NCBI GenBank assembly: GCA_965116155.1
Contig: OZ220488.1
Span: forward strand, 450,420-514,419
Source of the DNA: Bdellovibrionales bacterium
GTDB taxonomy: Bacteria > Bdellovibrionota > Bdellovibrionia > Bdellovibrionales > UBA1609
Length of the DNA stretch: 64,000 bases
Reading direction: 5' to 3'
Both the position numbers and the translations under genes were made by a program. Positions 1,120-62,496 of the stretch are shown piece by piece. The notes beneath the pieces are model-generated. The model worked only from the letters and a program-made list of their open reading frames with translations, was not told the DNA's origin and did not search any database. The number at the start of each line of letters is the position of its first letter. Position 1 is the first letter of the stretch.

Positions 1120-2274
1120 TTATACTGACTCAGGCTCGGGCCGGCCATCCTCAATATAAAGCCTGTCCCCTTTTATAAAAAAGCGCCTTTTTAAAATAGT
1201 GCCGCTCATGTTTTTTTGGGGGCGGTTTATATGCTTCATAAGCTCTAGCAAATGCGTCTGCCCATAACCCTTAAGCCCCCTCGCACGCGCATACTCTGCC
1301 AGCGCCCCTTGCGGGCCCAGTGGGTGCTTGTAAAGCTCTTGAATCTCTAGCTCATCCCCTGCTTGAGCCATGCCATGCTCTTTGCCATGCTCTTTAACCG
1401 CACCTGCCAAAAGCTCCAAGCTCCTTGACAAGGCCTTAGTTGCACCAGGGCGCTTTTGCTCCAGCAGCCCCAGCCAGCGCGTTTTGAGCCACGCCCTAAA
1501 GTCTGTGGCGTTGGTGGGGTCATCCACGTACTTAAGGCGACGCTCAAGGGCATAATGCCCCAACTCCTCACGCCCCACACATAAAAAAGGCCTTAAATAG
1601 GGCGCACGCCACACCTGCATGGCCTTTAGGCCCCCTAAGCCCGTGCCCCGCATCAGCCGCATCAGCCGCGTTAGGAGCAGGTCTTCTGCATGGTGCGCCA
1701 GCGCGATGCTGCACGGCCGCGCCTGCGCCAGACGCCGAAAGCCCGCATGCCGAAACTCCCTTAGGTCTGCCTCACTTAAAAGAGGGCGCTTGGCACCATA
1801 ATGCAGCACCCGACAAGGCAAGCCATAGAGCTTAGCCACGCGCTGCACCAGGCGCTTAGCCTTATTGCGAAAAAGCGCATTCTCGTGCTCTCCATGGTGC
1901 ACATGGACCACCTCAAGCTTAAAACTCAAAGCCCCTTGCAGCACGCGCAGCACCTCGAGCAAGCACATGGAGTCCAAGCCCCCGCTTACGGCCACGCAAA
2001 TTACAGCACTAACGGAATGCTCTGGGATAAGCGCCGCCTCTGGTGCAGCACCCTGCAAGGGGGCCTTTGCACTAGAGGCAAGCGACCCACAGAGCATTCT
2101 GCGGTCTATACGGCTTCTACAAGCCTGTAGCTTTGGGCGTTCTTTAAGCCCAAAGCGTCCAGAACTGCGAAATATATCCCTTAGCAACCGGTAGGTTTTG
2201 TGCTCCAAAGTGTTCCACTGAAGTTTGGCACGGTCCTTGCTCACAAGGGCGACAATAGTACATATAAAAACCAA
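1120..2274 (-). CDS. tilS: tRNA(Ile)-lysidine synthase
   Basis: PP-loop motif VAVSGGLDSMCLL and the overall TilS/MesJ pattern. It lies directly upstream of ftsH, a common arrangement. The longest ORF is probably over-extended; the ATG at 2097 (MLCGSL...) is a more plausible start. Confidence 0.8.
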   Translation of the reverse strand: MVFICTIVALVSKDRAKLQWNTLEHKTYRLLRDIFRSSGRFGLKERPKLQACRSRIDRRMLCGSLASSAKAPLQGAAPEAALIPEHSVSAVICVAVSGGLDSMCLLEVLRVLQGALSFKLEVVHVHHGEHENALFRNKAKRLVQRVAKLYGLPCRVLHYGAKRPLLSEADLREFRHAGFRRLAQARPCSIALAHHAEDLLLTRLMRLMRGTGLGGLKAMQVWRAPYLRPFLCVGREELGHYALERRLKYVDDPTNATDFRAWLKTRWLGLLEQKRPGATKALSRSLELLAGAVKEHGKEHGMAQAGDELEIQELYKHPLGPQGALAEYARARGLKGYGQTHLLELMKHINRPQKNMSGTILKRRFFIKGDRLYIEDGRPEPESV

Positions 2275-2331: not shown

Positions 2332-5300
2332 ATGCATCTTTTTTGTAAAATCCTTTTAAAAATGCAGCTCATTGTGGGAGCTGGTGTAGTTTTTATAGCA
2401 CTCGGGTGCAGTAACTCGAATTTTGTGCAAATCCCGCAAGACGCCCCTTTGCCCACGCCCACGCCACGCCTGCATAGCAGTTGCATTAATAGCAACACCC
2501 TTAGCATGCAGCTGCAATCGCCGCGCGTAAGTGAAGTGGCCTTGAGCTTTGAGCGCTGCCCGCTTGAGACTCCCAAAGACGCCCCCAAGGCGGAGTACCG
2601 CAACCCTATTAGTGACCTCAAATGGTACAAATACTCTCAAGAAAAAGGCCTATCTATAGAGGTGCCGGAGTTCTTTAGAAATTCCTCAGGCAGCATATAT
2701 GTTATATCGCGCACCAAAAATGGCATTTACAGCCACAGCTGCGGTAAGGCAGATTTTGACTTTGACGACACCAAGCCTCTAATAGACTTTACCTACCTGC
2801 CGGAACGGGTGTCTAACACCGAAGACAACATCCGCTGGAAGGTGGCCGACGAGCGCGGCCTAGCACCCGGACAAAGCTACGCCACTCTAAACGGGAAACA
2901 AATTGTTACCCAGTCACCAGACCCTACAGGTGAGCATGATATTTTTCAGCACCATTATATCTACCGCTCACAAAATCAACTGCAACCCGGTACCAATGTA
3001 CTGCGTGTGCATGCAACAGACAACTGCCACAATACCGAGCAATTAAGCTACGAGTGGGTCTACGATCCTAATGCACCCAAAGTGACCTTTACATCTAAAA
3101 AACCTAAAAAAAACGCACTAGAGGTCAACCTAAACTTTAACGTTACCGACCCAGAACCTGGGGCAGGATTAAAAAGTATAGAGTGCTCAAAAGACAACAA
3201 AAAAAGCTTTTCTCCATGCAGCAAGGGAAGCATTAAAACCCTCGCCCAAAACGGCGCCAACTCTGTATGGGTGCGCGCAACCGACAAGGCCGGCAACGTG
3301 GCCCTTAAGAGCTTTGATTGGCAAAGCGATATTGTAGCGCCTACAATAAAGTTCCTCACGCACCCAGCAACCGCTCAACACCAGGGCAAAAACTACAGCG
3401 CCCAAAACCAACCTAGCTTTAGTTACTTAGGCACCGATAACGAAGGCCCCGTGCGCTACCAGTGCGCACTTATTAAAGACAAAACCCCACTCGCACTAAC
3501 AAACTGCCAAAACAACACCCAGCACATGCTGCCTTTGTTGCAAGATGGAGATTATGTGTTTCAAGTTAAAGCCATAGACATGGCTCAAAACGCATCTTTA
3601 CCTGCAGAGTTTGTGTGGAGCGTTGACGCCACAGCACCAAGCTTGCAAATTACAGCCGCGCCCGGCATGAACTCTACAAAGCTACTAGGTGTAGGCGACA
3701 AAGCAGTGGTGCAGTTTGTAGCAATGGATACCGGCACCGGTTTGGCTCGTGTTGAGTGCTTGGTGAACAATAAAACACACGCCTGCCCTTTAAATGCTAG
3801 CCACCAGGGCAAGCTTAGTATCACTAAGCACAAAGAAGGCACCAATACGGTTACTATAAAAGCCACCGACCACGTGGGTAATAGCACGCAAGTAGAGCAC
3901 CAGTATAACTTTAGAAAAGAAAACCCTACCATTTTGTTTGATAGCGGCACGGCACATTTATCGCCACAAAAATCCAGCCATAAACAAAACCCATGGATAG
4001 AGCACGCCCTACGTGCGCTAAACCCCTTGCCACGTGCGTGGGCTGAAGAATCAGGTACCAAGGGTACAGACAGCGCCGATACGAGCAGCGCCGCCAAGGA
4101 GTGCTCGGGCCATGTTTTAGTAGGCCAAGGAGAGCAAGACATTAACTTTACAGTAATACCTTGCGCAGGGCTTGAAGGATCAGACACTCCCGAAGACTGC
4201 CTTGCAGCAAAGGCCATAGAGTGTAGTGTAGATAACAAAACCTACACCAACTGCATGGTAGGCACCAACAAGGGGCAGTTTAAAACCCCTAACTCTAAGA
4301 GCGGTCACTACAAACTTTTTGTTAAAAGCCGTAACCAAGCAGGCAACACCACAGTAAAATGCTACAACTGGCAAGTAGACGCCGATGCTCCGCGCATAGC
4401 GCTTACCGGTGTGCCTGCCTACATAACTCCAGACGAAGCCAATAAGAGCCCAGAAAAAGAACCAGTGAAAGAACCAGGCAAAGAATTTAACTGGAAGCAT
4501 ATCCCCACCAAGCTTTGCCAAGGCGAGGGCTGCGCAAAAGGTTTGCCACTCAGCCAAAAGCCCTTAAGCATTACGGGCGAACAGTACCGGTTTCAGTTTG
4601 AAGGCAAAGACGACCAGGGCGACCCTAGCTTAGCTGACAAAAGCGTACAGTACGAGTGCGTGCTTAAACGCAGCGGACGCGCTGTTGTGGGCCCAAAAGA
4701 GTGCGAGCCCGGCATGTTTTACACCAAACTGATGGAGAGCAGCGAGTACAGCTTTGAGGTCGTAGCCATAGACTCTGTAGGCAATAGATCTAAGCCTGCA
4801 ACGTGGCACTTTATGCTCGACCGCTACGGGCCGACGTTTCATTTTTCTAAAGTTCCAGGCGGCTTGGTTAAAAACAAAAAAAACGAGTGGCAGTTCCGCA
4901 GATGGCCCGTTATAGGTAAAGAAGCAGAAAACACCCTGCTCCTAAAACGTGCGCGCGATAGGTTTGTGCATATTGCAAAATTGGAATGCGCTGAGCTCGA
5001 CTCCTACCCTCACCCGGACACGCCTTGCCATGGGGTGTTCTCTACTGCGGCTCTGGATTTTCCTACAGAATTTGTACCCCTTGTAATGGACTATAAAGAC
5101 GCAAAAGAAAACACCTGCCACACAGCACGCTTAGAGGCAGAGGATATGTTTGGACACAGATCTACCTTGGCCTACAAGTGGTATGTTGATACCTTGGCAC
5201 CAAAGATTGAAATAAACAAACACCCTACTAAAAAAACCAGCCACACAGGGGCCGAGTTTTTAGTAACGGCCTTAGACTTTAACAGTGCCGAAAAGGCCAA

Positions 5301-6687
5301 ATGCCAAAACAACCCCCGCCGCGAACTTACACCTACAGAAACGCAAGAGACCGAGCTGGTGCTTTCGTACTCTTTAGACGGCGCTGCATGGAAGGAATGC
5401 AACTACAAAACCTGCCCCATCAAAGTGCAGGGCCTTAAACGTGGCCAGCACAAATTGAGCCTTAAGGCTCAAGACCGCGCGGGTAATGTTGCAACAAAAG
5501 ACTTTACCTGGGACATTACCAGCACGGGACCCGTGCTTAGCGCTACGCCTGTGTGGAGTGAATCGTCTTTTTGGCAAAAAGCACCCACAGGAGATGAGGG
5601 TAGCTTTTTTCAAAACATACCAGGGGAATTTACAGTTAATCTTAAGCCCATACAGGGCACTAGTATCAAAAACTACAACTGCCTGTGCACGCCTCAAGAT
5701 CCGACCACATGCAAGTACGATGCTAACAAAAGCTCCTTAAGTGTTAAGGTTGCAAATACAAAGCCCGGCACGCACCAATGCACCTTGAAGGCTTATGACA
5801 ACTTAGGAGCTGTAAATAGCACCCAAATAAGCTGGCAGGTGCTGCCTCAGTATCAGGTGTACAAATACAGCTTTAACCACAGGGCTAGCAAAGATATGGA
5901 CGTGCTTGTTGTACTAAAAGACCACAAAGACTTAAAAAAATTAAAACTACAAAAAATATGGCAACACCTTTTGCCGGCTCTTAGCAGCTTGGGTGAGTGG
6001 GAGTTTCGCGTTGCCCTAAGCACTGACACACTTTTGCGCGAGGGGCGGGTGTTTCCTGTAAGTCAGCAGATGGGATCTTTTGTAACGCCTTTTCATACCA
6101 AAAGCTTGAGCCTTGAGGCGTTTAACAAAATCTGGGTGGCTGCAGTCAAACAAAGCCTTAACACGGACTTAACTAAAATAGCGCCGTTGCCAGTGCAAAG
6201 CTTTGCCAGGCCCTACGCGGCCACTAAAGTTGTGCTCGTAGGCGCTAGCAGATTTAGCCCACTAGGAGAGGCAGAGCAGGCCGTGGAAAGCGTGAGTGGG
6301 TTATTTTCTAACCCCCCCCAAATGCACTCGGTGGTTTTGTTGAAAGAAAACATGTGCGCAACAGAAGCACCAGGAGAACTAACATCCTGCTTATCGGATA
6401 AGGCCTCATGTTACGAGAGCTTTGTATGCACGAGCACAGGGCTACAAGCGGTGCTAGAGCGCCTTGGCACAAAAGAGCTAAATGCTGAAAGCCACGCCAA
6501 ATGGCAGTTGCCTTATGCACCTGCCCCAGAGCACCCTAAGTACCAGTTGCAATTGCTGGACCCTCAAGGCAATTTGGTGGATCCATCACTTTACAAGGTG
6601 CAAGGGAGCACAATTTTGTTCCCCGACGAAGACGCCCTCCCCCGTGGCCAGTACACAGTGCAATATGTTAGAACGCTAGAGCAATAG
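2332..6687 (+). CDS. Giant surface lipoprotein with about 8 Cys-paired Ig-like repeats and a degenerate vWA-like C-terminal region
   Basis: 1451-aa ORF. The N-terminus MHLFCKILLKMQLIVGAGVVFIALG-CSN is a signal peptide with a lipobox-like ALGC. It has tandem ~90-110-aa modules with the pattern x-C-x-[LV]-[DN]..C..G-x-[YH]-x-[FL]-x-V-[KR]-A-x-D-x-[AV]-G-N..W-x-[VS]-D-x-x-[AG]-P. The C-terminal region aligns by eye with the vWA part of ORF 30907-32385 but lacks the DxSxS motif. Confidence 0.75.
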   Translation: MHLFCKILLKMQLIVGAGVVFIALGCSNSNFVQIPQDAPLPTPTPRLHSSCINSNTLSMQLQSPRVSEVALSFERCPLETPKDAPKAEYRNPISDLKWYKYSQEKGLSIEVPEFFRNSSGSIYVISRTKNGIYSHSCGKADFDFDDTKPLIDFTYLPERVSNTEDNIRWKVADERGLAPGQSYATLNGKQIVTQSPDPTGEHDIFQHHYIYRSQNQLQPGTNVLRVHATDNCHNTEQLSYEWVYDPNAPKVTFTSKKPKKNALEVNLNFNVTDPEPGAGLKSIECSKDNKKSFSPCSKGSIKTLAQNGANSVWVRATDKAGNVALKSFDWQSDIVAPTIKFLTHPATAQHQGKNYSAQNQPSFSYLGTDNEGPVRYQCALIKDKTPLALTNCQNNTQHMLPLLQDGDYVFQVKAIDMAQNASLPAEFVWSVDATAPSLQITAAPGMNSTKLLGVGDKAVVQFVAMDTGTGLARVECLVNNKTHACPLNASHQGKLSITKHKEGTNTVTIKATDHVGNSTQVEHQYNFRKENPTILFDSGTAHLSPQKSSHKQNPWIEHALRALNPLPRAWAEESGTKGTDSADTSSAAKECSGHVLVGQGEQDINFTVIPCAGLEGSDTPEDCLAAKAIECSVDNKTYTNCMVGTNKGQFKTPNSKSGHYKLFVKSRNQAGNTTVKCYNWQVDADAPRIALTGVPAYITPDEANKSPEKEPVKEPGKEFNWKHIPTKLCQGEGCAKGLPLSQKPLSITGEQYRFQFEGKDDQGDPSLADKSVQYECVLKRSGRAVVGPKECEPGMFYTKLMESSEYSFEVVAIDSVGNRSKPATWHFMLDRYGPTFHFSKVPGGLVKNKKNEWQFRRWPVIGKEAENTLLLKRARDRFVHIAKLECAELDSYPHPDTPCHGVFSTAALDFPTEFVPLVMDYKDAKENTCHTARLEAEDMFGHRSTLAYKWYVDTLAPKIEINKHPTKKTSHTGAEFLVTALDFNSAEKAKCQNNPRRELTPTETQETELVLSYSLDGAAWKECNYKTCPIKVQGLKRGQHKLSLKAQDRAGNVATKDFTWDITSTGPVLSATPVWSESSFWQKAPTGDEGSFFQNIPGEFTVNLKPIQGTSIKNYNCLCTPQDPTTCKYDANKSSLSVKVANTKPGTHQCTLKAYDNLGAVNSTQISWQVLPQYQVYKYSFNHRASKDMDVLVVLKDHKDLKKLKLQKIWQHLLPALSSLGEWEFRVALSTDTLLREGRVFPVSQQMGSFVTPFHTKSLSLEAFNKIWVAAVKQSLNTDLTKIAPLPVQSFARPYAATKVVLVGASRFSPLGEAEQAVESVSGLFSNPPQMHSVVLLKENMCATEAPGELTSCLSDKASCYESFVCTSTGLQAVLERLGTKELNAESHAKWQLPYAPAPEHPKYQLQLLDPQGNLVDPSLYKVQGSTILFPDEDALPRGQYTVQYVRTLEQ

Positions 6688-11431: not shown

Positions 11432-11993
11432 GTTGCTTAACCACAAAGAAAGTGCTAAAAAGCAACAAAAAAATATACTGCGAAATGACTAAAAACGAGG
11501 GATGCCGCCCTATAAGGAACCCTACAAGGAAAAGCGTAAATGAAAAAACTTTTGTGTGCGTTTTTGATTTTGTTTTTGTGCTCGTATGCTTGGGCAGGTA
11601 AAGGCATACGCGGTGACTATTGGGGCAAGCCCAAAGCAGCTAGTGATCCAATAAACTTGCCGGATTCTGTTAAAAATATGCTGGATGCAGAGGTTCTGAC
11701 AGGCGCTATGCTGCCTCTTTTTTGGGCCATTAAACACAAAGATTACGCTCTTGTAAAAACTTTGCTAAACCACAAAATAGATATCAATGCTCAAGATGCC
11801 CAAGGCCGCACGGCTCTTATGCAGGCGGTGCAAATGCCTAACTATGCAGATATTGAGACTTTGTTGGGCCATGCCGGCGTTGATATTAACCAAACAGACG
11901 ACCATGGCAAAACGGCTCTTTTTTGGGCTGCGCAAAGGGGCAGATTGCACTTTATAAAAACTTTATTAAATAGTGGCATTGATGTTAACGCCA
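11432..11993 (+). repeat. Segmental duplication, copy 1 (leader, signal peptide and first three ANK repeats), paralogous to 49435-49995
   Basis: By manual alignment, 11613-11993 and about 49612-49995 differ at about 8 positions in ~380 bp. The upstream ~110 bp and the signal-peptide region are more diverged but clearly homologous. Confidence 0.85.
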
Positions 11994-12679
11994 GGGGCGA
12001 ATATGGCAATACAGCTCTTATTTGGGCGGCGTATAACGGGCATGAAGAGTCTGTGCAGGCTCTTTTAGCTCATAAAGATATTGATGTTAACGCCAAGGAC
12101 GATGCTGGCGATACAGCGCTTATTTTGGCTGCGAGCAGAGGGAATGAAGAATCTGTACAAGCTCTTTTGGCTCATGAAGATATTGATGTTAATGCTAAGG
12201 GCGAATGTGGCTATACAGCGCTTAGTTGGGCTGCGCGTAACAGGCATGAAGAGTCTGTGCAGGCTCTTTTAGAACATAAAGATATTGATGTTAACGCCAA
12301 GGACGGTGATGGCAATACAGCGCTTATTTGGTCTGCGCGCAGAGGGCATGAAGAGTCTGTGCAGGCTCTTTTAGCTCATAAAGATATTGATGTTAATGCC
12401 AAGGACGGTGATGGCAATACAGCGCTTATTTGGGCTGCGTATGAAGGGCATGAAGAGTCTGTGCAAGCTCTTTTAGCGCGTAAAGATACTGATGTTAACG
12501 CCAGGGGCGAATATGGCTATACAGCGCTTTTTTGGGCTGCGCATGACGGGCGTGAAGCGCTTGTAGGGATTTTGCGAGAGCATGGGGCTATTAATGCTGG
12601 CACAATAGAAAAACCTGGCGCTGTGAACGTGCTTTTACAGCGTGGCAAATCACTCTGCACAAAGTTATTACAAAGTTAG
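11540..12679 (+). CDS. Secreted ankyrin-repeat protein (9 ANK repeats)
   Basis: It has the Sec signal peptide MKKLLCAFLILFLCSYAWA-GKG. Repeats follow of the form G-x-TAL-x-x-AA-x-x-GHEESVQALLAHKDIDVNAKxxx. The stop codon TAG (12677-12679) lies inside repeat module A. Confidence 0.9.
   Translation: MKKLLCAFLILFLCSYAWAGKGIRGDYWGKPKAASDPINLPDSVKNMLDAEVLTGAMLPLFWAIKHKDYALVKTLLNHKIDINAQDAQGRTALMQAVQMPNYADIETLLGHAGVDINQTDDHGKTALFWAAQRGRLHFIKTLLNSGIDVNARGEYGNTALIWAAYNGHEESVQALLAHKDIDVNAKDDAGDTALILAASRGNEESVQALLAHEDIDVNAKGECGYTALSWAARNRHEESVQALLEHKDIDVNAKDGDGNTALIWSARRGHEESVQALLAHKDIDVNAKDGDGNTALIWAAYEGHEESVQALLARKDTDVNARGEYGYTALFWAAHDGREALVGILREHGAINAGTIEKPGAVNVLLQRGKSLCTKLLQS
12005..12600 (+). repeat. 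In-frame 102-bp (34-aa) near-identical tandem ANK repeat array within ank1
   Basis: Units start at 12005, 12107, 12209, 12311, 12413 and 12515. The core CATGAAGAGTCTGTGCAGGCTCTTTTAGCTCATAAAGATATTGATGTTAA is almost invariant between units. Confidence 0.85.
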
Positions 12680-12870
12680 AGCGCTAGGAAAATGCCATGG
12701 GATTAAGCGCATCTTCCTGATAGCACCTAAAGGTGCGGCCATCAGGAAGATAAGCGTCCCACATGGCATTTTCCGACCTATAAGGCATCTATGGCCCTGC
12801 GGGATTGTGCGATCGTTAGGCACAAGGCGTCCAGACTTGCGTCAAAGTCCCGTACGTTGAGCAAACAAAA
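12676..12870 (+). repeat. Modular palindromic intergenic repeat, full A-B-C unit
   Basis: Module A is TTAGAGCGCTAG at 12676-12687. Module B is a long hairpin at 12687-12774 (GGAAAATGCCATGGGA..TCCCACATGGCATTTTCC, with inner stem TCTTCCTGAT/ATCAGGAAGA). Module C runs from CCTATAAGG.. through GCGTCAAAGTCCCGTACGTTGAGCAAACAAAA. Confidence 0.85.
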
Positions 12871-13062
12871 ATTAGAGCGCTAGCGAAATTCTCTGGGATA
12901 AGCGCGTGAGCATAAAGGTGTGTCAGTCTTCACAACAAGGTAACATTGCTGGCGCTTTTATGCTTACGCCTTTAGGCGAACGCACCACATCCTGCGTCTC
13001 ACCCATGTCCCACTGGCAGGCGCCAAAGGCGCCGGATACCAGTGGGACCAACAGCAGCGCGT
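12871..13062 (+). repeat. Second repeat unit: module A, left arm of module B, inverted pair of module E, and module D hairpin
   Basis: ATTAGAGCGCTAGCGAAATTCTCTGGGATAAGCGCG starts at 12871. GCGTGAGCATAAAGGTG (12904-12920) is paired with GCGCTTTTATGCTTACGC (12952-12969). Module D GTCCCACTGG..CCAGTGGGAC lies at 13007-13048. Confidence 0.8.
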
Positions 13063-16219: not shown

Positions 16220-16667
16220 TGCGTAAGCATAAAAGTGGCCCCTTGAAATTTTGGGCGGGTAGCGTAACCACCTGCCACCCTTTGCAGGGTGCTAAGCAGG
16301 TGGTAAGCGAAAAGTCCCAGGATTTCAAGGGAGAACAGGATAGCTCGCAGTATCGCACGGGACTTTGACGGCAGTCTGGTCGCGATAGGCCTAAAGATCG
16401 CCTATCGCTACAGGCTCATAGTAGCCTTTAGCTGTCTAGTGCACAAAAATGCCTCAGGCAGGACCACTTGTCTACCTGATGGCCCGCGCCCAAGGGCGCT
16501 ATCAGGTAGACTGCGTAGGGCTGAGAGCATTTTTGTTGGCACTTTTATGCTTACGCCATAGCCCGCGAAATTCTCTGTGGGACGCTTGGCGCCATCGCAG
16601 CAGCACCCTTTCAGGGTGCTGCTCTTGCGCCGCCGCTTATCCCAGAGAATTTCGCTAGCACTCTGAC
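16220..16667 (-). repeat. Composite repeat region in minus orientation, filling the der-yajC spacer
   Basis: Read on the minus strand after the der stop, it runs GTCAGAGTGCTAGC (A-like), then a B hairpin (16575-16655). Next comes a 346-bp segment bounded by a perfect 17-bp inverted pair GCGTAAGCATAAAAGTG (16221-16237 / 16550-16566). That segment holds a B-variant (about 16441-16546), module C (about 16337-16430) and a nested hairpin (16239-16331). Confidence 0.85.
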
Positions 16668-18104
16668 TTAACGGCTAAAAAAGCCCACCCTCACCGGAAC
16701 ATCCCTCCAGCCCCAACGCTCCTGCAAAGATTTTGTCAAAAATCTTCTGTAAGTAGCCCTCACCCCACGCGGGTAATTTGCAAACACCATAAAACTTGGC
16801 GGCACCTGCCGCGACTGAGTAATATAATAAAACTTTAAACTCTTAGTGCCCCACAGACCCGCAGGCGTGCCCTGGGTCAGCTTTGCAAAATAGCGGTTCA
16901 GCACCCCTGTAGGCACCCGCTGGCAAGCCCGTGCCTGAAGCTCGCGCGTGCCGCGCAGCACCTTTAATAAACCCGTTCCCTTAAGAGCGCTTACAAAATA
17001 ACAGGGCATATGCGGAAAAAAACTGAGCACACCCCTAAAAGACTTCCTCCGCTCTGTAAGGGAGTGTTGCGATGCGTCGCACTTGTTGGCCACTAATACA
17101 AATAGCTTGCGCTCCTCTATAAGCCTTTGCACCATCCGCGCCTCAAAGTCCCCCACTCCTTGGCGCACGTCGCAAACCACCAGCACCACATCAGCCTGTT
17201 TGATGGCATGCCAACTTTTATACGACGCAAGCAGCCCCAAAACATCGCCTGCTTTTTTAAACTGCGCCGCACGCCTTAAGCCTGCGGTGTCTATGATTTC
17301 AAACTCCCCTGCTTGTGGATGGTAAAACGCAGCGCTTGTGCTGTCGGTTGTTGTGCCCGCGCGGGGCGCCACCAAGCAGCGGTCAAATCCCAAAAATGCA
17401 TTGCACAAAGAGCTCTTGCCCACATTGGGCTTGCCCACCAAACACAACCTAATGCGAGCCGCTGGATTACACTGCGCTTGCAGCTCAGCATGAACGGCAC
17501 TACCTGACAAGGGATTTTGGTTGGCGCCTTTACTACAAGCGTGTGGCAAATCGAGCCCGCTCAGATTACCTTGCTTAAGCCCACCTTTACTTTGCAAGTG
17601 CGGCAATGCGCGCTCTACTACGTCTGCCACACCGTAATCCGAAGCAAATGCACCCACGAGTATGTTATCCACACCCAAAGCATAAAAAGGCGCCAGCATA
17701 GCCGCCTGTGCCTCAGCCTTTAAAGGCTTGTCCACCTTGTTAACCACCAAAACATAAGGCACGCCCCGCGCGCGCACGAGGCGCATCAGCTCCTCCTCTT
17801 CAACACCCACCCCCTTACGCGCATCCAAAACAAACACCACAAAATCTAGTGCCAACGCCTCAAAGCCCCGCACCCTGAGCGCGCCCTGCGCACTACTAAA
17901 CCCGCCCGTATCCACTACCTCAAAGTCACACCCCCACCAATGTGCGCAGCCGAAAATAAAATCCCGCGTCACGCCAGGCATATCTCGCACCAAAGCCTGT
18001 TTGCGCCGTACCAAAGCATTAAAAAGCGTGCTCTTGCCCACATTGGTACACCCTACCAAGCACATTCGAGCCACAGGCGCGCCCTTATTGGGATGAGTCT
18101 GCAT
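16668..18104 (-). CDS. der: Ribosome-associated GTPase Der/EngA (two GTPase domains plus a KH-like C-terminus)
   Basis: It has two P-loops (GCTNVGKST and GKPNVGKSS), DTGG/DTAG and NKVD/NKCD boxes, and a C-terminal KH-like region. It overlaps the rnc stop by 20 nt. Confidence 0.85.
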   Translation of the reverse strand: MQTHPNKGAPVARMCLVGCTNVGKSTLFNALVRRKQALVRDMPGVTRDFIFGCAHWWGCDFEVVDTGGFSSAQGALRVRGFEALALDFVVFVLDARKGVGVEEEELMRLVRARGVPYVLVVNKVDKPLKAEAQAAMLAPFYALGVDNILVGAFASDYGVADVVERALPHLQSKGGLKQGNLSGLDLPHACSKGANQNPLSGSAVHAELQAQCNPAARIRLCLVGKPNVGKSSLCNAFLGFDRCLVAPRAGTTTDSTSAAFYHPQAGEFEIIDTAGLRRAAQFKKAGDVLGLLASYKSWHAIKQADVVLVVCDVRQGVGDFEARMVQRLIEERKLFVLVANKCDASQHSLTERRKSFRGVLSFFPHMPCYFVSALKGTGLLKVLRGTRELQARACQRVPTGVLNRYFAKLTQGTPAGLWGTKSLKFYYITQSRQVPPSFMVFANYPRGVRATYRRFLTKSLQERWGWRDVPVRVGFFSR

Positions 18105-23893: not shown

Positions 23894-24538
23894 ATGAAAT
23901 ACTTTATGGTGCTTGTTAGCGAAAATAAAGAAACCCTCAGCCGCCTGCAGGACATTATGCAGCAAAGCGGACAGCCCATAAAATCAGGGACTTTTTCTGA
24001 AAGCCAATGGATCCAGTACTCTCAGATACCCAATTTTATGGCACGCCTAACAAACGAAAACCTCTTAGGGCAGTACCAGGCCGCTAACTACCAGCCGGCT
24101 TATGCCAAAAAGTCTAAAGCAAGCAACCTGCCCCAAGGTATAAACGCCACATCGCACCTACGCCTATTGCCACGCTCTGAGCACCAAGCGGTATCCACCA
24201 ATACCCTAACGCAAAACACACACACTAAAGGGCCACAGTCTCCAGCAGTACCCTGGCAGGGCCTTATGGGGCAAAAGCCCACCCCTCAAGCACCCGAAGC
24301 CGCAGCAACAAAGGACGGGCAGGGCTTTTTTAAAAAATCCCCTCCCATGTGTTCTATGAACGAGGTCCAGGCTCAGGCCATTTACTCGGCTTTGGTTGAA
24401 AGCGGAGGCAATGTCAGCAAAACAGCTAAAATTTTAAAACTCGGGCGTGCCACCCTTTACAGAAAAGTGCAACAATACGGCATAGAAATCTCAGACATCC
24501 GATCTTGGAACAGGACAAGCTACAAAAAAGCAAGTTAG
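23894..24538 (+). CDS. Fis-family helix-turn-helix DNA-binding protein (no receiver or AAA+ domain recognisable)
   Basis: The C-terminal SALVESGGNVSKTAKILKLGRATLYRKVQQYGI is an NtrC/Fis-type HTH. The ATG at 23894 follows AGGAAG. The longest ORF (from 23480) runs through the divergent promoter region and is rejected. The stop codon lies in repeat module A. Confidence 0.7.
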   Translation: MKYFMVLVSENKETLSRLQDIMQQSGQPIKSGTFSESQWIQYSQIPNFMARLTNENLLGQYQAANYQPAYAKKSKASNLPQGINATSHLRLLPRSEHQAVSTNTLTQNTHTKGPQSPAVPWQGLMGQKPTPQAPEAAATKDGQGFFKKSPPMCSMNEVQAQAIYSALVESGGNVSKTAKILKLGRATLYRKVQQYGIEISDIRSWNRTSYKKAS

Positions 24539-24734
24539 AGCGCTAGCCGCATGCTCTGGTCCAAGCGCCGTCTGCCTGATAGTCCCCACAGGGGACGATC
24601 ATCAGGTAGACAAGCGCCCCACAGAGCATGGGGCGGCCTATAAGGCTTCTATGAGCCTGTAGCCTTGGGTGTTCGGTAGACCCAAGGCGGCCACACTCCC
24701 GTCAAAGCCCCGTGCGATGGGCAAACACAAGTTA
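24535..24734 (+). repeat. Modular palindromic intergenic repeat, cleanest A-B-C unit, spanning stop codon to stop codon
   Basis: Module A is TTAGAGCGCTAGC at 24535-24547. Module B is a long hairpin at about 24550-24630. Module C lies at 24635-24731 (GGCCTATAAGG..GCCTGTAGCCTTGGGTG..ACCCAAGG..CCGTCAAAGCCCCGTGCGATGGGCAAACACAAG) and directly abuts the dacB stop at 24732-24734. Confidence 0.9.
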
Positions 24735-26138
24735 ACGCGTGAGTTCTTTAATTAAGTTGTCCATAAAGGCACGCGCACTGTTGGTTTTGGGGCCGTTGTA
24801 GAAAAAAGCAAACACCCGCTCAGCGCCGCTGCAAGGCGTACGCACATAGCCCGCTAGTGATGCCACACCCGAAAGCATACCCGTTTTTGCCCGAACCAAC
24901 GAGCTTACATCCGGCATGCGCCCGCTCAGCGAGCCCTCCCCACCGCCCACGGCCAAAGCCGACCGAAACTCCACACCCAAGCGCAAGTGCTGGCCCATCT
25001 TGCTTAAAAACTCCCCCACATCCGCGGGGCGAAAGCGGTTTTTTCTCGATAAACCCGAAGCACTATGCACCTGAAAATCCTTTAAGCCCTTAGATTTTAT
25101 ATAATCCGTAAGCACCCTCAAGCCTGCCCCAGGCTGCTTTTGTACCTTTAGCCCCAGGTGCGATACCAGCATCTCAGCCATGGCGTTATTTGAAAATCTC
25201 ATAAAGCCCTTTAGTATATCCTTTAAAGCAAGGCTTTTATGCGATGCTAAAAGCCTAGCCCCTTGTGGCGCCTCACCCACGCGCAGCCCACTACGCACCG
25301 CAACCCCTCGCTCCTCTAAAAAGGCCTTAAAATTCCAAGCACTCCAGCAGGCTGGGTCACCCACAATACTGCGGTACCAAAGGCGCTCCTTTGAACCCAG
25401 CGCCACCTGCCCCGACACATGCAGCTCACCTGCGCCTATACAGCGCCCGTTTTTTTGTGTGCCTGGGATCACCTGTATTTTTGTTTGTGCCCGCGCAGCA
25501 CGGCGCACCGTTAGCGCCTTGTTGCGCACAGTGAGCAGCCCATCCATAGGATCTAAACGGATGCGCGCTTTATCGCCCACTTGCTCACCCGGCCCCAGGC
25601 GCACATTGACCACGCTCCAGTTAAAGTTCATAGCACCAACAGGCGCATTATAAGCCCTTTGCAAAGAGGCTAGCCCACGCCCAGATCGATCGCGGCTCCA
25701 GCGGAACAGGCTGTCATCCACCACAATATCTTCCACCTCTAAAGGGCCCCAGCGCAAAAGTTCCTGCACCAAAAGCCACATAGACTCTGATACAAAGCTA
25801 GGATCCCCACCTCCCACCAAGTAAAGATCCCTAGCGCCACTGGGGGCCACAGGGCCTGCGCGCACCTGGGTCACAAAGCGCTCCTCGGCACCCAAAAGCT
25901 CCAAAGCCGCCCCCGAAACAAACAGCTTGGTCACAGAGGCCGGAATAAACGCCCGCCCCTCATTCAGCCCCCAAGCCTTAGGCCCAGGCCCAGGACAAAC
26001 ACCACCCCCATCACCCACAGGCCCCAAGTAAAGCCCCAGGTGCTGCTTAAGCAGGCCATGCTTTTTTAAGTTTTTATCTAAAAATGCGCTCCACTCCGGC
26101 GCCGCCCAGACTGGCCCAGCACCCAAAAGCATAAGCAT
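24732..26138 (-). CDS. dacB: D-alanyl-D-alanine carboxypeptidase/endopeptidase (PBP4, peptidase S13)
   Basis: SxxK (ASVTKLF), SxN (FSNNAMAE) and KTG (RAKTGML) boxes. The start is uncertain. The longest ORF reaches 26378 but overlaps the divergent lspA-like gene; the ATG at 26138/26132 gives a short signal peptide (MLMLLGAGPVWA-AP). Confidence 0.8.
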   Translation of the reverse strand: MLMLLGAGPVWAAPEWSAFLDKNLKKHGLLKQHLGLYLGPVGDGGGVCPGPGPKAWGLNEGRAFIPASVTKLFVSGAALELLGAEERFVTQVRAGPVAPSGARDLYLVGGGDPSFVSESMWLLVQELLRWGPLEVEDIVVDDSLFRWSRDRSGRGLASLQRAYNAPVGAMNFNWSVVNVRLGPGEQVGDKARIRLDPMDGLLTVRNKALTVRRAARAQTKIQVIPGTQKNGRCIGAGELHVSGQVALGSKERLWYRSIVGDPACWSAWNFKAFLEERGVAVRSGLRVGEAPQGARLLASHKSLALKDILKGFMRFSNNAMAEMLVSHLGLKVQKQPGAGLRVLTDYIKSKGLKDFQVHSASGLSRKNRFRPADVGEFLSKMGQHLRLGVEFRSALAVGGGEGSLSGRMPDVSSLVRAKTGMLSGVASLAGYVRTPCSGAERVFAFFYNGPKTNSARAFMDNLIKELTR

Positions 26139-30906: not shown

Positions 30907-32385
30907 ATGGGAAAATCTCAAAAAACACCCAAACAGCCGCAAAGTCCCTTGGCAGTCTTTAATACTAACAAGGTGTTTTTGGTTTTTTTGATAGGTGCGT
31001 GCTTTTTTTTGCCTATCGTGTATAGCTCTTGCGAAGATATAGAGTTTGTAAAACGCCCTGGCAAAATAGACACCACCCCACCTAATATAACAATTAACAC
31101 TCAAAAAAGCGTTAGCTCTATTACCGAGCAAGATACGGCTAAGGTTTATTTTGTGGCAAAAGACGGGGACTCGGGCGTGGCAAAAACTCTATGCCGCGCA
31201 GCACAGGTGGACGCCATAGAAGATGAAAAGTTTGGGCGCTGTAAAAGTCCATTTATAATCAACATACTGCAAGGCAACTATCAGTTTGAAGTAAAAGCCT
31301 TGGACAAAGAAGACAACGAAAGCTCTGTTGCAACACATAATTGGTGCCGCGGCCCTATGTGTGGTCGCATAGCGCATACTGGCAGCTTGCACAGCAGCGT
31401 TCAAAATGACAAGGTTGGGATTTTATTTGTTGTAGACAACTCTAGCTCTATGAAAAAAGAACACCGAGCTCTTTCTAAACACACGCCCCAGTTTTTGGAC
31501 CGATTTTCAGATTTGGATTATAAAGTCGCTGTAAGTGTTACGGATTATCATTTAGAAAAAAACGCCGAGCACCCTTTTAGGCCTATTGTATCAGGAAGCG
31601 ACTGCGCTTCGCACCGCACAGTAGAATCATCTGGTGCAACGGCTTTTGTTATAGACTCCCAAAATGCAGACCTTGCACAGGCGGCGGTGGATTTGTCGGC
31701 TACGATTATCTGTGTAGGGACTAAAGGGCATAGTGAAGAAAGCGGATTGGGTAGTTTTTTAAATTTGGTAAATGCTTATGATAGTAGCAATGCAGAAGCT
31801 CGCTCTTCTAATGGGCTTAATTTTTTTGATAACTTACAACACCTGGTGGTAGTTCTGATTACAGACGAAGGTGACAGATTTGTGCATAGAGAAGGCTTGT
31901 CCGCTGACGATATAAAAACCCGCTTCCACACAGTGTTTCCGGATACGGCTTTTTTGTGGCATTCTTTTGTGCAAATGAAGCATGTAATTAACTCTCATCC
32001 CCGATTTAAAGGGATGTACCTGTACAAGGATATAGCGGACCTCACCCAAGGCAGCGTACAGGATGTTTTAGACACTGCAGCTTATGGCACCGTGCTGACT
32101 GGTATTGCAGATTTAACACGCAAGCATATTATACGCGCGCGTTTACAGTGTGCGCCGGTGAACTACCAAAACCCACAGGACTACGATCCTGAAAACCCTG
32201 AGCACCGCTTGATGGAGGTTTTAGATTCACAAGGCACGCCCCTTAGTCCTCAGCCTATGTGCAAAATCGATCGTCACCTTAAAGTGCAGTGCTTTAGCTG
32301 CAGTGATCCACAAGACCTCGATACATGCGACACCCCATTAGATGCAGGCGAGTATACTCTTAAGTACCAATGTTTAGCCAATTAG
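30907..32385 (+). CDS. Lipoprotein with one Cys-paired Ig-like module and a vWA domain with an intact MIDAS motif
   Basis: The signal/lipobox-like sequence is FLVFLIGACFFLPIVYSS-C. The Ig-like module is ..LCRAAQ..CKSPFIINILQGNYQFEVKALDKEDNES... The vWA motifs are ILFVVDNSSSM (DxSxS) and VVVLITDEGD. It is a paralogue of the C-terminal half of 2332-6687. The stop codon lies in repeat module A. The longest ORF starts at 30877. Confidence 0.75.
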   Translation: MGKSQKTPKQPQSPLAVFNTNKVFLVFLIGACFFLPIVYSSCEDIEFVKRPGKIDTTPPNITINTQKSVSSITEQDTAKVYFVAKDGDSGVAKTLCRAAQVDAIEDEKFGRCKSPFIINILQGNYQFEVKALDKEDNESSVATHNWCRGPMCGRIAHTGSLHSSVQNDKVGILFVVDNSSSMKKEHRALSKHTPQFLDRFSDLDYKVAVSVTDYHLEKNAEHPFRPIVSGSDCASHRTVESSGATAFVIDSQNADLAQAAVDLSATIICVGTKGHSEESGLGSFLNLVNAYDSSNAEARSSNGLNFFDNLQHLVVVLITDEGDRFVHREGLSADDIKTRFHTVFPDTAFLWHSFVQMKHVINSHPRFKGMYLYKDIADLTQGSVQDVLDTAAYGTVLTGIADLTRKHIIRARLQCAPVNYQNPQDYDPENPEHRLMEVLDSQGTPLSPQPMCKIDRHLKVQCFSCSDPQDLDTCDTPLDAGEYTLKYQCLAN

Positions 32386-32837
32386 AGCGCTAGCTGCGTA
32401 AGCATCAGAGTGCTAGCCACATGTTCTGGGCTAAGTGCGTAAGCATAAAAGTGTTAGTGAGGGTGCCATGGCCAGAGAGCGCCGCCGATTGCGCACCTTC
32501 AGGTGCACAAGGCAAGCGGTCCATGCCAGGGCGCCCTCACGTGCTGGATAAAGCGCAGTCTCCCTGATAGTCCCTGCAAGGGACGACCATCAGGGAGATA
32601 AGCGCCCCACAGAACATGTAGCGACCTATGAAGCTACTATGGCCCTGTAGCGAAGTGCGTAAGCATAAAAGCCTAGTCTGAGCATTTGAGCAATGAGTGC
32701 AGTCCTCTTGGGAACATCCTGCAAGGATGAAAAACCCAGGAGGACAAACGACAGACTCAAATGCTCAGGCGGGCTAGAAAGAAGGGCCAAAGGCCCGCAG
32801 CGACCACACTTACGTCAAAGCCCCTTGCATTGAGCAA
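32382..32837 (+). repeat. Mosaic/nested repeat region (modules A, E, B and C with internal insertions)
   Basis: Module A occurs twice (32382-32394 and 32407-32418). The left arm of B (ACATGTTCTGGGCTAAG) is interrupted by GCGTAAGCATAAAAGTG (32437-32453) plus a hairpin insert and then resumes at ..CTGGATAAAGCGC. Module C is split by GCGTAAGCATAAAAGCC (32657-32673) plus a ~100-nt hairpin insert (TGAGCATTTGAG..CTCAAATGCTCA). Confidence 0.8.
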
Positions 32838-32876
32838 CACAAACTAATTAAAAGCTACGCTTTTAATTAGTTTGTG
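32838..32876. terminator. 18-bp perfect hairpin straddling the pilQ stop codon
   Basis: CACAAACTAATTAAAAGC (32838-32855), loop TAC, GCTTTTAATTAGTTTGTG (32859-32876). The pilQ stop TAA (32867-32869, minus strand) is inside the right arm. Confidence 0.65.
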
Positions 32877-45689: not shown

Positions 45690-45717
45690 CCTCTCGGTTC
45701 AGAATACCATTAGCATA

Positions 45718-45849
45718 ATTAGAGTGCTAGCCACATGCTCTGGGATAAACGCAGTCTGCCTGATAGTCCCTGAAAAGGGACGGCCATCAGGTAGACAAGT
45801 GCCCCTGGTATCCGGCCCTTCGGGCCTGCCAGGCAGGCATGGTGAGACG
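45718..45849 (+). repeat. Repeat unit: module A plus module B, whose right outer arm is replaced by or merged with an inverted module D
   Basis: The sequence starts with TTAGAGTGCTAGCCACATGCTCTGGGATAAACGC. The inner stem follows: TCTGCCTGAT (45755-64), apex AGTCCCT-GAAA-AGGGACG, then ATCAGGTAGA (45786-95). It ends with TGGTATCCGGCCCTTCGGGCCTGCCAGG..CATGGTGAGACG. Confidence 0.8.
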
Positions 45850-50531: not shown

Positions 50532-50639
50532 ATAGTCGTGCCGGAAGCCGGAGAACATACTTCAGTCACGACTAGACAGCTTCAACTAAACACCCAAAAT
50601 GTAAAGATCAAAAATGACGAAAAATGGGGGGGCGCCGCT

Positions 50640-50862
50640 ACAGGCCCATAAAAGCGCCAGCAATATTGCCTTGAACCTTAGAGTGCAGCCATCTTGGCAG
50701 CCCACAGGGTGTTAGCCAAGATGGCAAACAAAGTCTTCAAGGTAATATTGCTGGCGCTAGACAGCTACCAACACGCCGATAGCTTTGGGGGCTCTCTAAC
50801 CCCAAAGCGTCCAAACTCACTTAACCTAGCACGCCGCCGCTTAGTCCCAGAGAATTTTATCA
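50640..50862 (-). repeat. Rearranged member of the intergenic repeat family downstream of the VKOR-DsbA gene
   Basis: A 23-bp stem AGCGCCAGCAATATTGCCTTGAA (50653-75) / TTCAAGGTAATATTGCTGGCGCT (50736-58) encloses an 11-bp stem GCCATCTTGGC/GCCAAGATGGC. The linker CTAGACAGCTA follows. On the minus strand, TAAAATTCTCTGGGACTAAGCGG (left arm of B) starts right after the stop at 50860-62. Confidence 0.7.
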
Positions 50863-58688: not shown

Positions 58689-58978
58689 CAACAACTCACT
58701 CAATGCACGGGGCTTTGACGTCAGTGTGGCAAATGGAGTCACGTTTCATTCACTTGCTTTGAGCAAGACCAGGCACAGGCGACTTTGTTTTTCCTCAATC
58801 TAGAAAATTTTCACTTACAGGTACGCACTTAGACTCCATTTGCAGGGCCACAAATAGCTGTCTAGCGCGTAAAAACACTTTGAGTGAGAACCTCGCTTAC
58901 CTCAATCGGCATGCATTCTTACAGAATGCCTACCGAGAGGCTACGCTTTTAATCAAAGTGTTTTTACTGGCGCTTTTA
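58689..58978 (-). repeat. Full composite repeat in minus orientation, spanning from the ferredoxin stop to the coiled-coil gene stop
   Basis: Read on the minus strand, it begins AATTAAAAGCGCCAG, an A-like box that contains the ferredoxin stop. A 15-bp-stem long hairpin follows (58869-58883 / 58953-58967). Then come CTAGACAGCTA and an inserted hairpin bounded by GCAAATGGAGTC/GACTCCATTTGC. It ends with module C ..CCACACTGACGTCAAAGCCCCGTGCATTGAGTGAG, abutting the TAG at 58686-58688. Confidence 0.75.
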
Positions 58979-62270: not shown

Positions 62271-62274
62271 CACA

Positions 62275-62470: not shown

Positions 62471-62496
62471 TCAATTTACGCGCTAGAAAGATAATA

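Follow-up and report, generated by a model that had tools for sequence, protein, structure and literature searches.

A composite hairpin-forming intergenic repeat occupies a stop-to-stop spacer in a bacterial genome

A Fis-HTH gene and the convergent gene dacB are separated by a spacer of 193 nt (24539-24731) that is filled from one stop codon to the other by palindromic sequence. The Fis-HTH stop TAG (24536-24538) sits within AGTTAGAGCGCTAGC, and the dacB stop lies on the minus strand at 24732-24734. The first-pass annotation had read the spacer as a structured repeat unit between the two stops, and the sequence, the stops and the inverted repeats (GCCGCATGCTCTG/CAGAGCATGGGGC, GTCTGCCTGAT/ATCAGGTAGAC, the apex GTCCCC/GGGGAC and GCCTTGGGT/ACCCAAGGC, together with two copies of the CAAGCGCC box) are as it described. 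We found that the spacer is a single intact unit of a dispersed repeat family with further copies in the window (the whole stretch of DNA analyzed, 64,000 nucleotides). The reference unit consists of the following parts:

24526..24547, plus strand: left terminus (extended module A), AAAAGCAAGTTAGAGCGCTAGC, with the Fis-HTH TAG 24536-24538 inside
24548..24636, plus strand: module B, a long imperfect hairpin (covariance model R1, 91.9 bits)
24637..24662, plus strand: linker (module C), CCTATAAGGCTTCTATGAGCCTGTAG, with the GTAG tag 24659-24662 at its end
24662..24688, plus strand: GTAG-tagged short hairpin, GCCTTGGGT-gttcggtag-ACCCAAGGC, an inverted repeat whose stem covaries between copies
24689..24731, plus strand: conserved tail, GGCCACACTCCCGTCAAAGCCCCGTGCGATGGGCAAACACAAG, from alignment and nhmmer matches to the tail-only copies 32791-32847 and 58698-58729
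24723..24743, plus strand: right terminal direct repeat (degenerate second module A), AAACACAAGTTAACGCGTGAG, from the direct repeat and its stop-codon context

Module A had been proposed as a module in its own right; it is instead the 5' foot of the long hairpin, pairing with GCGGCCTAT at the start of module C, and the left terminus that contains it doubles as the left copy of a terminal direct repeat. The first bases of the linker and the preceding GCGG form the 3' foot. A single imperfect palindrome of about 105-115 nt runs from module A through module B into the start of module C; its inverted ends (~25 nt) and two AAGCGC boxes are conserved, and its inner stem is variable, always remaining paired. 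In the reference unit, module B has the outer arms CATGCTCTGG / CCACAGAGCATG, the two CAAGCGCC boxes, the inner stem GTCTGCCTGAT / ATCAGGTAGAC, the apex GTCCCC-ACA-GGGGAC and a 4-nt internal loop on the 3' side. The outer stem does contain a bulge, previously described as a 2-nt AC, but this can be read as one or two nucleotides. After the long palindrome come the GTAG-tagged short hairpin, whose loop is conserved as GWTCNNTAR, the tail of ~45 nt and a direct repeat of the left terminus. This repeat closes the reference unit with 17 nt (24526-24542 versus 24723-24739) and is present at both ends of every full unit with a length of 17-23 nt; from start to start, units measure 196-198 nt (~197). 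Both termini contain stop codons, TTAG giving TAG on one strand and TTA giving TAA on the other, and the TTA at 24732-24734 in the right terminal repeat is the minus-strand TAA stop of dacB.

The predicted structure is conserved between copies through compensatory change. The reference unit folds at -96.7 kcal/mol, compared with -69.8 +/- 4.5 for shuffled sequences (z = -5.96). Across copies of module B, double changes occur at 22 of the 27 pairs, and 90.2% of cells are paired versus 71.4% after shuffling. The covariation score of 0.612 (0.240 shuffled) was reached by none of 500 shuffles, and slid controls gave 0.09-0.15. Each of the 11 inner-stem pairs has both-sided changes; conservation is seen in the outer arms and the boxes. 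Five of the eight module B copies share a GCCTGAT/ATCAGG stem, and the others have unrelated but compensated stems. The short hairpin shows the same behavior, with 94% of cells paired and both-sided changes at 5 of 9 pairs. Farther out, module A and GCGGCCTAT are also paired and covary, as in the 1994 copy, where a G-to-A change is matched by a C-to-T change. The sense and antisense strands fold about equally well (-747 versus -721 kcal/mol, summed over hairpins), and the 5 to 1 asymmetry of G-U versus A-C in the inner stem involves numbers too small to choose a strand.

Family members in the window were detected using BLAST self-matches, nhmmer and the covariance model R1, all of which agree with the modular, palindrome-rich intergenic family that the first reading had proposed. 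Four units are complete or almost complete (24527-24739, 12664-12875, 62265-62478 and 1994-2170, with nhmmer E-values from 1e-51 to 1e-64), and about ten more pieces are truncated, nested or mosaic. The family totals 1,887 nt, and the 1,682 nt of it that are intergenic account for 31% of the window's 5,507 intergenic nt. The copies beyond the reference unit, together with the weakest resemblance, are:

12664..12875, plus strand: full unit 2 (nhmmer E 9.9e-63)
12869..12905, plus strand: stub of module A and the 5' arm of module B (nhmmer E 2.1e-7)
62265..62478, plus strand: full unit 3, in a co-directional spacer (nhmmer E 2.5e-62)
1994..2170, plus strand: unit 4, tail truncated, in a divergent spacer (nhmmer E 2.4e-51)
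16352..16670, minus strand: interrupted unit (nhmmer E 3e-22 and 5e-23; R1 90.1 and 52.6 bits)
16245..16330, plus strand: diverged hairpin with the architecture of module B (R1 25.2 bits, E 4e-5)
32371..32850, plus strand: mosaic (nhmmer, covariance model R1 and sequence)
45711..45815, plus strand: module A and module B without the 3' outer arm (nhmmer E 1.6e-18; R1 72.6 bits)
50637..50875, no single strand: mosaic with pieces in both orientations (nhmmer, covariance model R1 and sequence)
58698..58974, minus strand: tail 58698-58729 and diverged long hairpins 58731-58845 and 58868-58964 (nhmmer, R1 and sequence)
6668..6679, plus strand: solitary 12-mer resembling module A, TTAGAACGCTAG, with one mismatch (sequence)

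Many of these copies are truncated, nested or scrambled. The stub at 12869..12905 ends after GATAAGCGC and is followed by a different palindromic module; further stubs are found at 32405 and 50833, and lone tails at 32791 and 58698. The minus-strand unit at 16352..16670 begins one base past the der stop. It is split after GCGGGCTAT, where a second B-type hairpin (16455-16533) intervenes; on the far side come its module C and short hairpin and a truncated tail. The boundaries of the nested hairpin are ambiguous as a target-site duplication (GCTA, CTA or TA). Mosaics are found at three loci (32371-32850, 50637-50875 and 58698-58974), with hairpins that have diverged but keep the family architecture among their pieces. 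At 32371..32850, two module A copies, a B stub, a diverged hairpin and a full module B (32536-32624) are followed by module C, a B-variant (32681-32769), a variant short hairpin and a tail (32791-32847). The mosaic at 50637..50875 combines a C motif (minus strand, 50637-50651), a B-variant (plus strand, 50662-50753), a short hairpin (plus strand, about 50771-50817) and a diverged module A with a B stub (minus strand, 50833-50875). Related sequence occurs at all nine loci for which recurrence had been claimed, but at 6668 it amounts to the 12-mer, which adjoins a different repeat family. An nhmmer match at 63848-63929, inside an aldehyde dehydrogenase gene, was judged a chance similarity in a conserved coding region.

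The copies are closely tied to gene ends. Significant matches place the family in five of the six convergent spacers and in three co-directional spacers. The latter number is as first annotated; all six convergent spacers had been thought occupied, but the sixth (6688-6811) has only the 12-mer at 6668..6679, through which gene 2332..6687 is read in frame 3 at its end. Divergent spacers had been credited with only a ~25-nt fragment, which is contradicted by the nearly full copy at 1994-2170; this copy overlaps the 5' end of tilS, and its antisense strand encodes the N-terminus of TilS. Orientation relative to genes is informative only in the co-directional spacers (n = 3), where two copies are sense and one is antisense, the latter being 45711..45815 between two minus-strand genes. 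Both unit ends give stop codons to flanking genes, and at least five genes receive their stops from the family. Module A supplies the TAG stops at 24536, at 12677 (12677-12679, ending the ankyrin gene 11540..12679 in full unit 2) and at 32383 (32383-32385, in the first module A of that mosaic). In unit 3 the module A TAG is in frame, two codons past the real stop of gene 61287..62270. TTAAAGGACTGA in the 50833-50875 stub forms the final codons of gene 50860..52101, and the tail at 58698-58729 adjoins the TAG stop of gene 57654..58688.

A search of 24539-24731 found no terminator-like or promoter-like consensus sites, and none of the unit's hairpins is followed by a T run, so it does not qualify as an intrinsic (Rho-independent) terminator. 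In other convergent spacers, unique A/T-flanked palindromes accompany the repeat. No conserved open reading frame runs through the copies; a peptide-coding repeat was rejected, as the frame from the outer-arm ATG stops early at 45732 and the ATG is absent at 62289. We also rejected a DNA uptake sequence for module A: all its occurrences are at the feet of hairpins, and none is within a gene.

Searches of sequence libraries returned no relatives. Rfam gave no matches for the whole window at gathering thresholds, in keeping with the earlier statement that the whole unit could not be matched to any named family, and a permissive search with four loci returned matches that all fell far below threshold and were mostly to miRNA precursors and SRP. 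The inner stem had been equated with the enterobacterial REP stem. The two have just a 7-mer in common, and BLASTN (word size 11) of 24525-24745 against 5,426 Escherichia coli genomes yielded nothing at E <= 10; plasmids likewise gave no BLASTN match. Exact-pattern scans produced 61 single matches in unrelated taxa among species-representative genomes, all attributable to chance, 0 and then 13 chance matches in metagenomes, and none in viral sequences; these scans require exact matches to short patterns, which diverged relatives would escape. Among the ~45 proteins encoded in the window, we found no transposase.

The family, its anatomy, conserved structure and position relative to genes, its stop donation, its truncated and nested copies and its absence from the searched libraries are direct observations; mobility, an enzyme and any RNA effect are what we infer from them. 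Our preferred reading, to which we assign a probability of roughly 0.6, is that the spacer holds an intact unit of a lineage-specific, composite, hairpin-forming interspersed repeat of the REP/BIME and palindromic MITE kind. Judged by the lack of matches in Rfam, E. coli genomes and plasmids, the family appears new as a sequence and familiar as a kind of element. Stubs, lone tails, the nested B hairpin at 16455-16533, the antisense copy at 45711 and the divergent-spacer copy at 1994 argue for a selfish repeat, and confinement to non-coding DNA, compensated stems, stop donation and the lack of a conserved open reading frame point to one similar to REP/BIME. The units would be non-coding, non-autonomous DNA, mobile now or formerly, that accumulated, nested within itself and decayed where a compact genome tolerates it, right behind genes. 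Because both termini carry stop codons, units can sit flush against or inside gene ends. We propose that what preserves the hairpins is a requirement of propagation, namely a folded single strand for a trans-acting enzyme to recognize. For this enzyme we would tentatively put a RAYT/IS200-like HUH transposase first and a DDE transposase that acts on the inverted ends second; the complementarity of the arms may in addition be helped by template-switch correction of quasipalindromes. When transcribed in a 3' UTR, a unit is predicted to form very stable RNA hairpins, a probable side effect of which is that convergent transcripts are buffered or insulated at their 3' ends. We count several results against a mobile repeat: no signs of movement (an empty site, insertion polymorphism or a target-site duplication varying between loci) were found, no transposase is encoded in the 64 kb, and the exact-pattern collection scans detected no copies outside the window. 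The terminal direct repeat is, moreover, not predicted by simple REP, IS200 or MITE models.

The occupancy of five of six convergent spacers and the lack of a canonical terminator in the reference spacer would fit a host-selected function too. Under this alternative, which we consider unlikely, the unit would be a 3' UTR RNA acting in cis as an exonuclease stabilizer, as a terminator or insulator lacking a U-tract, or as an RNase III site. It gains from unit starts that coincide with the upstream stop or lie a few bases from it, from a reference spacer with no other terminator-like or promoter-like site, from strong covariation with a few G-U pairs on the sense strand, from the RNase III gene at 18085-18840, and from the RNA role argued for many REPs by Di Nocera et al. 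(PMC3733652). A required RNA would not be expected to occur in so many truncated, nested and scrambled copies, to lie antisense to both neighbors (45711) or to sit in a divergent spacer (1994). The equal folding of the two strands singles out neither as the transcribed one, no hairpin is followed by a U-tract, and the unique A/T-flanked palindromes of other convergent spacers speak against it as well. Independent genes for a family of trans-acting small RNAs, each with its own promoter, would also account for a stable conserved structure in many copies; this is highly improbable given units that begin inside or at the upstream stop codon with no promoter-like site in or before them, the absence of Rfam matches and the fragmentation of many copies.

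The remaining alternatives concern the route of mobilization. The first-pass annotation proposed a REPIN/REP population mobilized by a single-copy RAYT (TnpA_REP), which we regard as doubtful. GTAG does lie beside a palindrome, as that annotation stated: the tag at 24659-24662 is at the foot of the 9-bp stem 24662-24670 / 24680-24688, as in a REP tagged palindrome, it is retained in five of seven short-hairpin copies, and the overall behavior of the family is REP/BIME-like. Within the window, however, this hairpin is always inside the composite unit and never stands alone or as an inverted doublet, and GTAG sites with an adjacent hairpin (29 of 314) are no more frequent than for other tetranucleotides. 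The long hairpin has the conserved inverted ends and compensated spacer of a REPIN (PMC3116915), and conserved bulges and internal loops suggest recognition of a single-stranded structure; the lack of a demonstrable target-site duplication also agrees with a RAYT. Its arms, ATGCTCTGGGATAAGCG and AAGCGNCCCACAGAGCAT, nevertheless have neither a palindrome of their own nor GTAG; module B is REPIN-like in architecture only and is not a doublet of REP palindromes. Such a system would include a RAYT gene with the repeats on its flanks; the window encodes no RAYT or Y1 transposase, and there is no similarity to E. coli REPs. A classical palindromic MITE of the Correia, ERIC or RPE type, moved in trans by a DDE transposase acting on ~25-nt inverted ends (an IS630/Tc1-like enzyme with a TA target being one candidate), is improbable in our view, notwithstanding the imperfect terminal inverted repeats TTAGAGCGCTAGCnnnATGCTCTGG and CCACAGAGCATnnnGCGGCCTATAA, the TA at both palindrome boundaries in all full copies, and a size of 105-115 nt with a long-hairpin body resembling Correia and ERIC. 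The flanking TA or TTA is identical at all loci and so not demonstrable as a duplication, no parent IS with family ends was found in the window, and the short hairpin, tail and direct repeat lie outside the palindrome yet travel with it in a fixed order. The ~197-nt unit, with its fixed order of hairpins and tail between direct repeats, might also be a distinct class of structured element, which we think quite unlikely, either propagating by a route undescribed for bacterial repeats, such as site-specific recombination between its terminal repeats or an intermediate of unit length that is circular or rolling, or recruited as a general 3'-end or insulator element in the reduced genome of a very isolated bacterial lineage.

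If the density in the window holds over the 1.61-Mb genome, the interspersed repeat would number hundreds of copies and occupy a third or more of the intergenic DNA, extending REP/BIME-like repeats to a deep, reduced lineage in which the conserved Der GTPase shares only 37% identity with its nearest relative. Compensation is unusually clear for a single genome, and the repeats reshape gene ends, providing the stops noted above and the N-terminus of TilS. Models of the family would improve gene-end annotation in the host genome and would also yield strain-typing markers.

Among known systems, integron attC sites are hairpins with conserved structure, variable sequence and conserved bulges that lie directly after open reading frames. 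Our family resembles them in each of these respects, which suggests recognition of a folded single strand, yet it flanks housekeeping genes in both orientations rather than forming a co-oriented cassette array, has no recognizable R''/R' core sites and is accompanied by no integrase encoded in the window. On inspection the defining features of attC are absent, as are those of IS200/IS605 ends or an omega-RNA relic and of a CGTC-type REP in the tail. Correia elements (CREE) in Neisseria, ERIC (IRU) in enterobacteria and RPE in Rickettsia are imperfect palindromes of 100-150 bp with inverted ends that are co-transcribed with their neighbors, may overlap or extend open reading frames and form long double-stranded RNA hairpins. 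The palindrome, inverted ends and open reading frame overlaps of our family are similar; its sequence is unrelated to theirs, and it has the short hairpin, tail and direct repeat attached in fixed order. With the mosaic intergenic repeats NIME (Neisseria) and BOX (pneumococcus, boxA-boxB-boxC) (PMC3733652, PMC3049150) it shares short intergenic modules in conserved order with variable presence and nesting, and differs in the modules and sequences themselves and in a framing module A that belongs to the hairpin foot and provides stop codons.

The closest comparison is with REP/BIME and REPINs. REPs of the GTAG super-family are short palindromes with stems of 6-13 bp and an unpaired GTAG at one end, dispersed singly or in head-to-head or tail-to-tail dimers; they are known for stop-to-stop fit, donation of TAG stops and covarying stems, lie within 20 bp of both open reading frame ends in convergent spacers, and have copies at N-termini (Di Nocera et al. 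2013, PMC3733652). REPINs have conserved ends and a spacer kept paired by compensation (PMC3116915). Unlike REP/BIME, our family is built as a ~197-nt unit with fixed module order bounded by a 17-23-nt direct repeat, its GTAG hairpin has a conserved 9-nt loop and is neither solitary nor a doublet in the window, and the unit has no sequence similarity to E. coli REPs. Unlike REPINs, it has a main hairpin exceeding 100 nt that is not made of two REP palindromes, and no RAYT is found among the ~45 window proteins. Like REP/BIME, it is extragenic, occupies convergent and co-directional spacers a few bases from the 3' ends of open reading frames, donates TAG stops from its termini, bears GTAG at a hairpin foot, has sub-family stems that differ by complementary changes, and forms mosaic clusters and overlaps with N-termini; like a REPIN, it has a long hairpin with conserved ends and a compensated spacer.

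A repeat finder recovered, from the 193-nt spacer between the Fis-HTH gene (PF02954; stop TAG at 24536-24538, within AGTTAGAGCGCTAGC) and the convergent D-Ala-D-Ala carboxypeptidase gene (dacB; PF02113; end at 24732-24734), the outer arms of the long imperfect hairpin termed module B (GCCGCATGCTCTG / CAGAGCATGGGGC), its inner stem (GTCTGCCTGAT / ATCAGGTAGAC) and its apex, a second, short hairpin (GCCTTGGGT / ACCCAAGGC) and a box present twice in the unit (CAAGCGCC). The first-pass annotation's description of 24535-24734 matches the sequence exactly. This 200-nt stretch folds at -96.7 kcal/mol compared with -69.8 ± 4.5 kcal/mol for dinucleotide shuffles (z = -5.96), and its complementary strand folds about equally well; because sense and antisense strands match in stability, folding does not tell apart which strand folds, or DNA from RNA.

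BLAST searches of the spacer and of the window against the window found related sequence at every locus named in that annotation; at 6668 this is only a 12-mer resembling module A (the left terminus), which adjoins a different repeat family. An nhmmer profile made from the full copies and run on the window identified four units that are complete or almost so (24527-24739, 12664-12875, 62265-62478 and 1994-2170; E 4e-64 to 2e-51), together with shorter pieces.

Partial copies identified by the profile
16352-16545, minus strand, partial copy
16558-16670, minus strand, partial copy
32544-32660, partial copy
45711-45805, partial copy
50648-50819, partial copy
32791-32847, partial copy
12869-12905, partial copy
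58698-58729, minus strand, partial copy
32405-32437, partial copy
50833-50875, minus strand, partial copy

Divergent spacers thus hold more than the fragment reported earlier, the nearly full copy at 1994-2170 having been overlooked. An unfiltered search with a long-hairpin covariance model detected eight strong copies (52-92 bits) and several diverged hairpins of the same architecture, at 32681-32769, 50662-50753, 16245-16330 and 58868-58964. The family totals 1,887 nt, of which 1,682 are intergenic, or 31% of the 5,507 intergenic nucleotides in the window; the share rises to 39% when associated modules are counted. A weak nhmmer match at 63848-63929 (plus strand; E 5e-4), which includes an exact GAGCCTGTAGC, falls in the conserved C-terminal part of an aldehyde dehydrogenase gene and was judged a chance match.

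Alignment of the four full units revises the anatomy. The long hairpin reaches past module B, as the bases between A and B pair and covary with those following B (CG/GC/UG and AU/CG/GU), and module A pairs through its core with GCGGCCTAT, located at the start of the linker, module C. In the copy at 1994, a G-to-A change in the module A foot is offset by C-to-T on the pairing side. Modules A and B, together with the start of C, are therefore not separate elements but parts of a single imperfect palindrome roughly 105-115 nt long, with inverted ends of about 25 nt each (TTAGAGCGCTAGCnnnATGCTCTGG and CCACAGAGCATnnnGCGGCCTATAA). It is followed by a GTAG-ending linker, a hairpin (stem of 8-9 bp, conserved loop of 9 nt) and a conserved tail. 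The left terminus is repeated directly at the end of every full unit (24526-24542 and 24723-24739 in the reference), with a start-to-start distance of 196-198 nt at all three loci. The motif framing the diverged hairpins, GCGTAAGCATAAAAGYGCCAGC, is a variant of extended module A, TTTAGCAYAATTAGAGYGCTAGC.

Across eight copies of module B, 22 of the 27 consensus pairs show two-sided changes, and 90.2% of cells are paired compared with 71.4% after shuffling. The covariation score of 0.612 (0.240 shuffled) was reached by none of 500 shuffles, and slid controls gave 0.09-0.15. Sequence is conserved in the outer arms and two AAGCG boxes, while the copies at 24548, 2014, 62289 and 16563 have wholly dissimilar inner stems. 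In the short hairpin, pairing reaches 94%, with double changes in five of nine pairs.

Units also contribute to gene ends. Three genes take their TAG stop from module A (gene ends at 24538, 12679 and 32385); it also lies in frame two codons past the stop of the gene ending at 62270, and begins one base past that of der. Diverged module A copies, TTAAAGGACTGA and TTAAAGGACTAG, make up the final codons of two unrelated genes, with ends at 50860 (minus) and 58688 (plus), which share the end TTAAAGGAC followed by a stop (50860-50871, minus; 58677-58688, plus). The right end of the unit provides the TAA of dacB, and that of the copy at 58698 abuts the TAG of a convergent gene. TAG is the commonest stop among the 43 window ORFs (18 TAG, 16 TAA, 9 TGA), and at least five stops (four TAG, one TGA) lie within repeat termini. 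The copy at 1994-2170 overlaps tilS, whose PP-loop domain begins near 2001 and whose only upstream start codons, TTG 2059 and ATG 2098, are within the element. The 20-35 N-terminal TilS codons, including residues directly before the SGGLDS P-loop, are the antisense strand of a unit (1994-2100, minus). Downstream of tilS, an ftsH-like gene (1-1080, minus) extends beyond the left window end, so ORF 277-633 (plus) is spurious and 634-1119 is not intergenic.

Other palindromic sequences accompany the family.

Other repeats and palindromes
6713-6773, plus strand, second family, CCCATGTCCCACTGGCAGG-hairpin-CCGGATACCAGTGGGACC
13002-13062, plus strand, second family
~45806-45850, minus strand, second family
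6776-6848, unique near-perfect palindrome
13063-13114, unique near-perfect palindrome
32838-32876, unique near-perfect palindrome
40615-40672, unique near-perfect palindrome
45850-45889, unique near-perfect palindrome
12905-12975, long-hairpin sub-family
50640-50765, long-hairpin sub-family
58864-58974, long-hairpin sub-family
32655-32770, long-hairpin sub-family

Each second-family copy directly precedes a long palindrome at a minus-strand gene 3' end, and its inner part scores weakly (27 bits) with the module B model. The unique palindromes (39-73 nt) span minus-strand stop codons, several with flanking A and T runs, and are probably bidirectional terminators overlapping coding-region ends. 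The sub-family is framed by GCGTAAGCATAAAAGYGCCAG and CTGGCGC(TTTTATGCTTACGC / TAGACAGCTA); a homologue of the 3' half of hairpin 50662-50753 lies at 12925-12960.

Each window protein that was looked up is a singleton, all of them on one 1,611,223-bp contig, and the best relative of Der (16668-18104) among 5.8 billion proteins is 37% identical, which points to a very isolated host lineage with a small genome. Window genes encode ankyrin-repeat proteins, a type IV pilus and type II secretion. A 1-kb duplication (11432-12435 and 49435-50437; 89% identity) takes in the leader and 5' portion of each of two ankyrin-repeat genes with internal repeats of ~100-nt period; another large ankyrin gene, the third, occupies 54595-56331.

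We favor, with a probability of about 0.6, the reading that the family is non-autonomous DNA, mobile now or in the past, because stubs and isolated tails occur beside intact units, a B hairpin sits nested within another unit, antisense and divergent-spacer copies exist, and copies overlap gene ends while keeping to non-coding DNA. The units might serve the host as RNA, in the role of 3'-end stabilizer or insulator; such a function could coexist with mobility and seems rather unlikely, since those stubs, lone tails and nested, antisense and divergent-spacer copies are not the pattern expected of a required RNA. Within the unit there is neither a sigma-70-like promoter nor a T run after any hairpin, and no ORF is conserved.

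Under mobile DNA, a trans-acting enzyme recognizing a folded single strand would fit conserved ends with a compensated spacer; we suggest that quasipalindrome template-switch correction could also yield the compensation without selection. An HUH/RAYT-type transposase is a tentative candidate for the mobilizer, slightly favored over a DDE enzyme that would act at the inverted ends, which we consider doubtful. The window contains no transposase genes and no general enrichment of GTAG followed by a hairpin.

Rfam returned no family at gathering thresholds, and permissive searches of four loci gave matches well under threshold in every case, most of them to miRNA precursors and SRP. The link to the enterobacterial REP stem proposed in the first-pass annotation did not survive: E. 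coli genomes lack similarity to the unit even at E <= 10, and plasmids show none, so the GCCTGAT/ATCAGG likeness, confined to one sub-family, is a short coincidence. When species-representative genomes and metagenome and viral contigs were scanned for exact patterns, only chance matches, or none, came back. Judged by these searches, the sequence family is new.

The kind of repeat is well known. REPs in convergent spacers lie within 20 bp of both ORFs, their termini donate TAG, and copies also occur at ORF N-termini, so that the whole gene-end behavior of the unit is already documented for REPs (PMC3733652). REPINs, as described by Bertels and Rainey, have conserved ends and a compensated spacer, as does the unit (PMC3116915). 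The only features not placed within this known kind are the fixed module order and the terminal direct repeat.
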